A stretch of 17,197 nt of DNA from the UHGV virus genome UHGV-0182888; one strand, given 5' to 3'. The notes beneath the pieces are model-generated. The model was given only the letters and a program-made list of their open reading frames with translations. It did not search any database and had not been told where the DNA came from. This stretch comes from a virus. This document shows positions 5,500-6,162 of this stretch, piece after piece. The translations under genes and the position numbers were made by a program. Position 1 is the first letter of the stretch; every line of letters starts with the position of its first letter.

Positions 5500-6162
5500 T
5501 TAGTCGGTGATGTTATCTACTAAGCTTAATATTGCATCGCGCTTCTTCTTTATTAATTTAAAGCAAAGACTTGCGCCCTTACCTTGCAATATCCCTAAAT
5601 CCTCTCCTGTTCCGTCGCCATTAAATGCACAATCGCCGATAGCAATAATGCAATCGTAGAAGTTTTTTTCTTCGGGATCATCAAGGTTAAGATAAGAGAT
5701 TAGTAACAATCTAGCTTGCAAGAACTTACTGCTGTTAGCAATTATGGCTTGACAGGATAACTGTTGATGCTTAAGTGCATCTTCACCTAACCGTTCAGCG
5801 TACTGTTTAAAATCAGACTTGCTGCTATAAATCGATGAAGCGACATCTACAAAACTGACAAAAGCTTCTCTTAAGGCCTTGCTTTCATCTTTCATTAATT
5901 CCACTTCAGTAGCAAGTTGTGTATTTATTTTTAACTCATTAATTTGTTGCTTAATTCCATGGTTAAACTGTTCAATTTGTTTGCTCTGACTAATTTTGAA
6001 TTGTCTATAAGAAAACCAAATAGCAAAACCAGCAATCACTGTAGGGGCGACTGCAATTATGAAATCACTGAACGTCGCAAAGCCCCCTTTGTCATTATCA
6101 ATTTTGACAGTTATTACATTTTGAAGAGGATTAAGCACTTCCAATAAATGAATTATATCCAT
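5500..6162 (-). CDS. Hypothetical membrane-anchored protein (220 aa): one predicted TM helix, then a helical/coiled-coil cytoplasmic region; AT-rich
   Basis: ATG 6162 with SD AGGTGA 6 nt upstream. One hydrophobic helix FIIAVAPTVIAGFAIWFSY, then a Q/K/E-rich region. AT-rich codon usage unlike the flanking genes. First ORF after the tR'-like terminator downstream of Q. Confidence 0.7.
   Translation of the reverse strand: MDIIHLLEVLNPLQNVITVKIDNDKGGFATFSDFIIAVAPTVIAGFAIWFSYRQFKISQSKQIEQFNHGIKQQINELKINTQLATEVELMKDESKALREAFVSFVDVASSIYSSKSDFKQYAERLGEDALKHQQLSCQAIIANSSKFLQARLLLISYLNLDDPEEKNFYDCIIAIGDCAFNGDGTGEDLGILQGKGASLCFKLIKKKRDAILSLVDNITD

Follow-up and report, generated by a model that had tools for sequence, protein, structure and literature searches.

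The lambdoid prophage of Citrobacter braakii represented by virus genome UHGV-0182888, a stretch of 17,197 nucleotides (nt) that was analysed whole and is hereafter called the window, carries immediately behind its antiterminator gene Q and a tR'-like terminator an AT-rich gene for a predicted membrane-anchored protein of 220 amino acids (aa), to which we refer as X220. We find that X220 belongs to a genuine but rare family whose gene behaves as exchangeable cargo, and we consider the chances about even (probability roughly 0.5) that the protein is made in the lysogen and acts in exclusion of other phages or in abortive infection; its function, together with promoter activity, topology and oligomerisation, is what we infer here. 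Several lines of evidence favour this reading, namely the cargo behaviour of the gene, its occurrence in two independent hotspots, a hypervariable head, a moron layout, retention in decayed prophages, the predicted topology and a prior drawn from the literature. Superinfection exclusion and abortive infection had been named among the candidate roles in the first-pass annotation of this DNA, and it is this class of role that the hotspot and modularity evidence supports best.

The gene call, the base composition, the profile matches of Q and a terminator scan together bear out the annotation's description of an AT-rich 220-aa ORF (open reading frame) that comes first after Q and a tR'-like terminator. 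X220 has a GC content of 0.359, and of 0.326 at third codon positions (GC3), unlike its neighbours Q and the methyltransferase gene (GC3 about 0.53) or the window as a whole (GC 0.495). Full-length homologues in Citrobacter, Salmonella, Kluyvera, Enterobacter and Klebsiella share 25-65% identity with the protein, on which basis we judge X220 to be a real gene and no chance reading frame, and an identical protein is encoded on 24 contigs of public assemblies. The gene and the slot in which it lies are delimited as follows.

5500 to 6162, minus strand: the X220 ORF (our name for it), 220 aa, with an ATG start and a TAA stop at 5502-5500.
6312 to 7022, minus strand: antiterminator Q gene, the left-hand backbone of the slot (PF06323, E 2.2e-36; phrog_304, E 3.9e-72).
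6198 to 6219, minus strand: tR'-like intrinsic terminator, the left boundary of the cargo slot, a hairpin with T-run from the terminator scan.
5325 to 5462, minus strand: conserved right flank of the slot (...GCTGTGAAAATGGGCGGCTGG...), in which 96-100% identity resumes in all sister prophages and in Escherichia coli.
4272 to 5324, minus strand: N6_N4 DNA methyltransferase of the M.EcoGI/GII family, a beta-class N6-adenine enzyme (PF01555, E 5e-43; PADLOC MTase_II, E 1e-141).

Exchange of the gene between otherwise near-identical prophages is sharply bounded. The Q, DUF968, RusA, Ant and methyltransferase products of sister prophages are 96-99.7% identical to those of the window (Q itself 96-99.5%), whereas their X220 proteins are only 45-64% identical, and a DNA identity of 96-100% on either side drops solely within about 6195-5465, from the end of the T-run to the hairpin past the stop codon. 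The divergence is unevenly distributed along the protein: against allele P0018, residues 1-100 of X220 show 72% identity and residues 103-220 show 16%, with a four-helix layout predicted alike for both by AlphaFold. Synonymous sites are saturated between alleles this divergent. The prophage of E. coli Nissle 1917 has Q, the terminator and, at 98.9% identity, the methyltransferase in common with the window, but 2 kb of unrelated cargo lies in between; the two sequences diverge right after the T-run of the shared terminator. Presence or absence among near-identical phage genomes with sharp boundaries, and a base composition at odds with the neighbouring genes, are both marks of a moron.

The slot was surveyed in 96 sampled IMG/VR contigs that share its right-hand flank (window 5433-5457, used as anchor). 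Anything from about 380 to 3400 nt separates Q from the flank in these contigs, and 48 protein clusters are encoded there after Q genes of at least 5 types. An X220 gene is present in 2 of the 96. The survey confirms the earlier suggestion of a variable cargo slot; the comparison of the slot across related prophages that had been proposed with it also found the gene not to be invariant. Other cargo occupies this position in phages phiNP, mEp460 and phiP27 and in the prophages of E. coli O104:H4 and Nissle 1917, and PD-T4-6/Stk-type kinases (five loci) and an NsnA/PD-T4-2_A-like protein are found among the cargo of lambdoid Q-to-methyltransferase slots. Within census loci L034-L152, the kinases occur with a PP2C phosphatase and the NsnA/PD-T4-2_A-like protein with a C5 methyltransferase, and the same loci hold an OmpC-like porin, several multi-transmembrane proteins of unknown function and insertion sequence (IS) elements. 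An ORF of about 65 aa (clustered as a 140-aa frame) lies just 5' of the flank in 53 census loci, not in the window.

Lysis and structural genes are gone from the decayed prophages L006-L008, yet X220 is retained. These three are Citrobacter remnants truncated right after the methyltransferase gene, with host or colanic-acid genes next, and they still hold the immunity region, Q, X220 and the methyltransferase gene.

A second genomic setting is provided by P2-like prophages, in which the interval from replication gene A (PF05840, E 1e-127) to the portal gene harbours X220 homologues of about 32% identity (E 1e-30). This gpA-gpQ location, with GPA upstream and portal and terminase genes downstream, was found for L021, L022, L024 and L156; the P2-like context of L154 and L155 is partial, and the copy in the window is lambdoid. 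The gpA-gpQ interval of P2-like phages is the old/tin defence hotspot (PMC9122126, PMC13586616, bioRxiv 10.1101/2024.10.15.618418). In these loci the cargo is arranged as follows.

L021: the X220 homologue alone, with no further cargo.
L022: the X220 homologue first, then a GmrSD type IV restriction enzyme.
L024 and L156: the X220 homologue first, then a DndB/DpdB-like pair.
L154: the X220 homologue first, then a 324-aa protein and a DUF4325 protein.
L155: the X220 homologue first, then a complete type IX retron (HEPN, helix-turn-helix and reverse transcriptase genes).

The literature lends such positions a certain prior weight: 15-32% of the unknown proteins of the P2 hotspot are predicted to be defensive, most untested genes of the P4 hotspot gave phage resistance once assayed (PMC13586616), and transmembrane (TM) proteins in such hotspots are generally seen as abortive-infection effectors (PMC9122126, PMC13586616). 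In L021 (8674-8685), L022 and L024 a copy of the 12 nt with which the gene opens (ATGGACATCATC) lies about 13 nt past the stop codon; either an exchange of cassettes or an earlier tandem copy may have left it as a scar. A 234-aa family member (L157, 5971-6675; also L158) lies outside any recognisable phage, in a transposon-associated island, where it is flanked by an EamA-type transporter gene and an Mrr_cat-like gene of 185 aa, with a resolvase and an AAA_22 transposition-type ATPase encoded nearby; the upstream motif described below is present there too.

At the level of the protein, conservation is concentrated in the N-terminal tail, in a stripe of small residues within the predicted TM helix and in a block at residues 77-98.

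6064 to 6162, minus strand: conserved acidic N-tail (MDIIHLLEVLNP...), residues 1-33, from the family alignment.
6007 to 6063, minus strand: predicted TM helix, residues 34-52, with a conserved small-residue stripe (P40/A44/A47/S51).
5869 to 5934, minus strand: conserved helix block LKINTQLATEVEL.K..C..R, residues 77-98, at the base of the bundle, from the family alignment.
5503 to 5856, minus strand: hypervariable part of the four-helix-bundle head, residues 103-220, from comparison with P0018.

The N-tail pattern MDIIHLLEVLNP..V.T.K is the most conserved block of the family (mean identity 0.86 for residues 1-10), and it is kept through synonymous changes (ATGGATATAATT compared with ATGGACATCATT). 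An AlphaFold model of X220 (mean predicted local distance difference test score, pLDDT, 77) gives low confidence to residues 1-29 (pLDDT <50) and places residues 27-122 in a single continuous helix, within which lies the sole hydrophobic segment of the protein (residues 34-52, mean Kyte-Doolittle 1.9), in agreement with the single N-proximal TM helix noted at first reading; three more helices pack with the end of the first to form a four-helix bundle at about residues 90-216. Across 45 family members, the 15 residues that precede the TM helix have a mean net charge of -0.8 and the 15 that follow it one of +2.4. Cysteine is present at position 94 in 39 of the 45 and at position 200 in 41, and at positions 101 and 196 in 20 each, the cysteine count being odd in many members and the protein of the window having serine at position 94. 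Charge bias and odd cysteine numbers favour an orientation with the N-terminus outside and the C-terminus inside, a prediction made by rule of thumb. A double-glycine leader or prepilin-type signal in the N-tail was considered and dropped, as the GG/GF residues are not conserved in the alignment.

Database searches leave this family on its own. Profile searches with X220 in Pfam, PHROGs, PADLOC and NCBIfam gave no assignable family, as the annotation had reported from the letters alone; the matches to ViaA, SigB and phrog_4740 fall far below cut-off and were set aside as coiled-coil noise, the last of them, a family of unknown function, being the only match in PHROGs (E 0.011). Nor did X220 show profile membership in known families of superinfection exclusion or abortive infection (SieA, SieB, Imm, Cor, RexB, PADLOC systems), and the remote-homology and structure searches that had been suggested as a check (profiles, and Foldseek against BFVD and PDB) recovered no known relative among holins, antiholins or exclusion proteins. 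A profile search of the PDB yielded no significant relative, its top match being the TAF1 bromodomain (E 0.019). There was no tblastn match in 50,697 INPHARED phage records, and megablast against 5,426 complete E. coli genomes returned the flanks only, X220 being absent at megablast sensitivity. An exhaustive hidden Markov model search of 1.84 billion representatives recovered the X220 family and no other, in 32 clusters at 50% identity, and the family forms 22 clusters at 90% identity. Its members are about 200-240 aa long and all from Enterobacteriaceae (Citrobacter, Salmonella, Kluyvera, Enterobacter, Klebsiella and a rare example in E. coli); one Salmonella allele is found on more than 950 contigs, and a scan of species-representative genomes returned a single locus, in Buttiauxella. 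The source annotations of 10 clusters read 'hypothetical protein' in every case.

The sequences that frame the gene bear on when it would be expressed.

6253 to 6281, minus strand: tentative pR'-like promoter (TTGCAA, 17 nt, CATATT), read by eye, with a presumed role.
6186 to 6197, minus strand: cassette-borne motif TTTGGTATGATG, extended -10-like (TG-n-TATGAT), a putative promoter of the gene's own, from an exact-motif search.
6168 to 6174, minus strand: Shine-Dalgarno sequence AGGTGAG, read from the sequence and preceded by the U-rich leader TTTCTTTTT.
5468 to 5485, minus strand: 3' stem-loop GCCTCTT-TTTG-AAGAGGC, a weak terminator lacking a U-tract, at the cassette's right-hand end.

The pR'-like stretch has 8 of 12 consensus matches, which is below a call by the promoter scanner, and is conserved with the Nissle 1917 prophage; the tR'-like terminator folds at -12 kcal/mol (z -2.83). 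Inside the short pR'-to-tR' transcript, the sequence TTTGATATGTTG (6232-6243, minus strand) is one base off the cassette motif TTTGGTATGATG and could be a sigma70-dependent pause element for Q loading. The exact motif TTTGnTATGATG occurs once only per locus in 15 loci of lambdoid, P2-like and other contexts, 25-37 nt 5' of the start codon, with variants in L005, L016, L026 and L027. Together with the U-rich leader TTTCTTTTT, itself conserved across genomic contexts, TTTGnTATGATG or a close variant is found in lambdoid phages with two unrelated Q families, in P2-like prophages, in Buttiauxella and in L025-L027. Lambdoid loci have TTTGnTATGATG abutting the tR'-type hairpin, whereas folding detected no significant hairpin upstream of the motif in the P2-like loci, L016 or L026, and for that reason we assign it to the X220 gene and not to tR'. 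From its letters, TTTGnTATGATG reads as a putative extended -10 promoter. Each X220 allele ends in a hairpin that differs in sequence from allele to allele; strong canonical terminators (z -3.7 to -4.2) lie 3' of the gene and before the holin gene in L025, L026 and L027, and a fair one in L010.

The position behind Q and tR' that had been proposed for X220 is thus confirmed, but the Q-dependent late expression deduced from it need not be the only expression, given that TTTGnTATGATG accompanies the gene into contexts that lack Q. The moron layout implies, without proving, that the gene is expressed in the lysogen and that in lytic growth it is traversed by Q-modified polymerase. The Tai system of phi80 offers a precedent for immune genes within late regions that are coordinated with Q-driven transcription (PMC11364771).

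We propose that the X220 cassette would be a self-contained moron, in which a single gene is framed by a portable promoter-like element and, on its 3' side, by a hairpin or terminator, and which here occupies the cargo slot that separates the Q/tR' region from the late genes. Its product would be a bitopic inner-membrane protein with the N-tail probably outside, a TM helix that continues into a stalk and a four-helix bundle that is probably cytoplasmic; the conserved N-tail, TM helix and bundle base may serve as anchor or effector, and the distal part of the bundle, swapped between alleles, may confer specificity. Made in the lysogen, X220 would act to exclude other phages. Once the variable head had recognised some component of the invader, the conserved membrane module would either oligomerise and perturb the inner membrane, leading to abortive infection, or block a step at the membrane, which would amount to superinfection exclusion. 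Of these, cytoplasmic sensing with membrane perturbation is favoured because the predicted topology places the C-terminus inside. During lytic growth, Q-modified polymerase may simply read through the gene. A broader form of the proposal is possible, although we hold it rather doubtful: that X220 typifies a new family of one-gene, membrane-anchored anti-phage sensor-effectors, with the N-tail, TM helix and stalk as effector, an exchangeable head and a promoter of their own, which travel among unrelated hotspots. Judging from gene neighbourhoods, these hotspots would comprise the lambdoid Q-to-lysis slot, the P2 gpA-gpQ interval, terminase-proximal sites and the transposon-associated island.

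A number of observations weigh against a role in exclusion or abortive infection, or against particular parts of the model. PADLOC gave no match to X220 at E<=1, and Foldseek against BFVD and PDB gave none at E<=0.001 (all E >=0.007). The topology is predicted only by the positive-inside rule, and the best structural look-alikes are periplasmic sensor bundles. The putative promoter has no -35 element and was not called by a consensus promoter scanner, and the 3' hairpin of the window is 7 bp long, with z -1.7 and no U-tract; readthrough past it into a methyltransferase of a family reported to be toxic (PMC5778455) would have to be tolerated or prevented otherwise. Slots of this kind also hold porins, toxins and IS elements, such that guilt by location is only probabilistic. 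Finally, in the P2-like phages one allele is fixed in first position while the downstream cargo changes, an arrangement that fits a phage-beneficial accessory function equally well.

As the first gene after tR', X220 could instead be a lysis-timing regulator (an antiholin, or a class III protein resembling holins) that is translated from the late transcript and modulates the phage's own holins; a lysis or timing regulator had also been put forward in the first-pass annotation. The homologues of L025-L027 lie directly upstream of holin genes, and a single N-proximal TM helix in a protein of 220 aa resembles the layout of T4 holin T. We regard this as very unlikely. No holin or antiholin profile in Pfam or PHROGs matched X220 at E<=0.1, whereas the two neighbouring holins of the window are recognised with values of 1e-20 to 1e-41, and a dual-start holin motif was dropped as a candidate because the alignment has no second conserved Met. 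X220 is neither linked to nor co-varies with a particular lysis cassette: allele P0018 occurs with two unrelated ones (holin_8/holin_3_7/GH19 and holin_2/lysozyme), a 100%-identical holin accompanies heads that are only 16% identical, and allele P0003 is found in prophage remnants without lysis genes. Moreover, the P2-like homologues are distant from lysis genes and in a defence hotspot, and even where the holin gene comes next (L025-L027), a strong terminator stands between the two.

Neighbourhood likewise suggests a functional pairing with the methyltransferase, about which the annotation had left the question open, with X220 as regulator, tether, toxicity control or restriction-modification-like effector, or else as a counter-defence factor in lytic growth. 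Every lambdoid locus examined from Citrobacter, Salmonella and Kluyvera has the two genes side by side in the same orientation, and enzymes of the M.EcoGII type are toxic and need tight control, M.EcoGII being a non-specific adenine methylase that is silent in lysogens (PMC5778455). Against this, each gene is found without the other. The methyltransferase stands at 76-99% identity behind entirely different cargo in E. coli Nissle 1917 and O104:H4 prophages and in phages phiNP, mEp460 and phiP27 (the window enzyme is 76% identical to a 349-aa methyltransferase in the same slot of the O104:H4 prophage), and X220 homologues have no adjacent methyltransferase in L016 (Buttiauxella, beside terminase), L021-L027 or L154-L157. 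Nor do the two co-vary: whichever head type accompanies it, the methyltransferase retains 96.5-99.7% identity. X220 has no nuclease family or nucleic-acid-binding signature in Pfam or NCBIfam, and its predicted fold is all-helical. We consider such a partnership highly improbable; from the comparison of loci, the methyltransferase is part of the phage backbone and not a partner of X220.

Two further explanations were considered. X220 might bring about superinfection exclusion with the opposite topology, the N-terminus inside and the bundle in the periplasm, where it would block DNA entry via the ejection apparatus or an inner-membrane receptor. The conserved cysteine pairs of helices 1 and 4 (C94-C200; C101-C196) could then form disulfides, a variable surface would be expected in an arms race with phage ejection proteins, and the hotspot and moron evidence applies equally; the family charge (+2.4 after against -0.8 before the TM helix), however, favours a C-terminus inside, many members have odd numbers of cysteines, and the window protein lacks C94, so that we think this topology unlikely. 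It is also distinctly unlikely, in our estimation, that X220 is a factor of lysogenic conversion or host fitness outside phage conflict, for instance in envelope stress, colonisation or signalling. The lambdoid slot does hold toxins, porins and esterases in other phages, and both retention in decayed prophages and the spread of the Salmonella allele would agree with such a role. Yet conflict systems are where one would more typically see a head replaced wholesale in prophages that are otherwise nearly identical, recognised defence genes repeatedly lie beside the gene in the P2 hotspot, and no similarity to virulence or envelope families was found in Pfam or NCBIfam.

On the minus strand of the window, the gene order runs from a DUF968/HNH protein through Q, the hairpin and T-run terminator and X220 to the N6_N4 DNA methyltransferase, and then to two holins, a GH19 endolysin, spanins, an AT-rich stretch with a 188-aa ORF and terminase Nu1; Rfam and transfer RNA scans of the window gave no matches. 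The AT-rich stretch between spanins and Nu1 (window 1000-2440, GC 0.40) is a second region of cargo, whose 188-aa ORF (1746-2312, minus strand) has as its sole match phrog_4350, of unknown function, and sister prophages L009 and L010 carry different genes there. This is the position given for Tai/Ati immune pairs in phi80-like phages (PMC11364771). Between methyltransferase and holin, a HicA/HicB toxin-antitoxin pair is present in L009 (9953-10591) and also in L011, marking a further insertion point in the leader region of the late operon. The window prophage encodes two adenine methyltransferases, a Dam-family enzyme of 439 aa in the early region (9098-10417) and the late M.EcoGI/GII-like enzyme at 4272-5324; in relatives, the 439-aa gene is replaced by those for a 299-aa Dam and a 665-aa C5 methylase.

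If X220 is indeed a lysogen-expressed exclusion or abortive-infection protein, then a single gene in a compact 0.73 kb would make up a defence module, for which nature supplies a library of interchangeable specificity heads borne by an unchanging membrane module. It would be a convenient system in which to study the coupling of a membrane effector to phage sensing. The Q/tR'-to-methyltransferase interval, better known for stx, would then be a defence hotspot comparable to those of P2 and P4. The portable promoter-like motif provides a sequence handle for finding more cassettes, and even should the reading prove wrong, the locus is a clean case of cassette exchange within a clonal prophage backbone. 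Moron and hotspot cargo is of a known kind; the X220 family, the exchange of its head, its presence in two hotspots and its portable motif are undescribed in the libraries and literature searched.

Comparison with known systems places X220 among these more precisely. Its bundle recalls 4HB_MCP-type sensors (Tsr, PcaY, QseE, TorS), from which X220 differs in having no second TM helix, no signalling output domain and no Pfam 4HB_MCP match, and in a charge bias that predicts a cytoplasmic rather than periplasmic site; neither the profile nor a position between two TM helices, by which such periplasmic sensors are recognised, was found, and designed bundles score equally well, so that the match is one of generic fold. 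T4 holin T and antiholin RI represent the class III holin layout, which X220 resembles in its approximately 220 aa, one TM helix near residue 35 and closeness to lysis genes, but it has no profile match, does not co-vary with holins and is found in lysis-less remnants and away from lysis genes as well. CapRel-type fused defences combine a conserved effector with a variable C-terminal sensor, and other abortive-infection systems have TM effectors; with its conserved N-module, hypervariable C-module and TM segment X220 may be likened to both by analogy of architecture alone, and it differs from both in having no homology to them and no toxin domain. The Q-to-lysis cargo of Shiga toxin (Stx) and related phages (stx, tRNAs, nanS-p, the Stk kinase, the M.EcoGI/GII methyltransferase) occupies the same interval with the same flank, although X220 is a different gene, rare in the slot (2/96) and absent from the 5,426 E. 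coli genomes by megablast.

Homologues of X220 lie in exactly the interval that holds the P2 gpA-gpQ cargo (old, tin and newer systems; PMC9122126, PMC13586616), with the differences that X220 is not represented in PADLOC, that the window copy is lambdoid and that the P2-like copies are fixed in first place while later cargo varies. Lambdoid membrane-exclusion morons such as HK97 gp15 (PMC3594210) show no sequence relationship to X220, and they sit in the tail region rather than the Q-to-lysis slot and lack the long stalk and replaceable four-helix head. Common to both are the insertion of a single AT-rich gene between conserved phage genes, a promoter-like element, a 3' hairpin, a small product anchored in the membrane and a variable presence among otherwise identical phages; the layout of X220 is that of a classical moron (PMC3594210).

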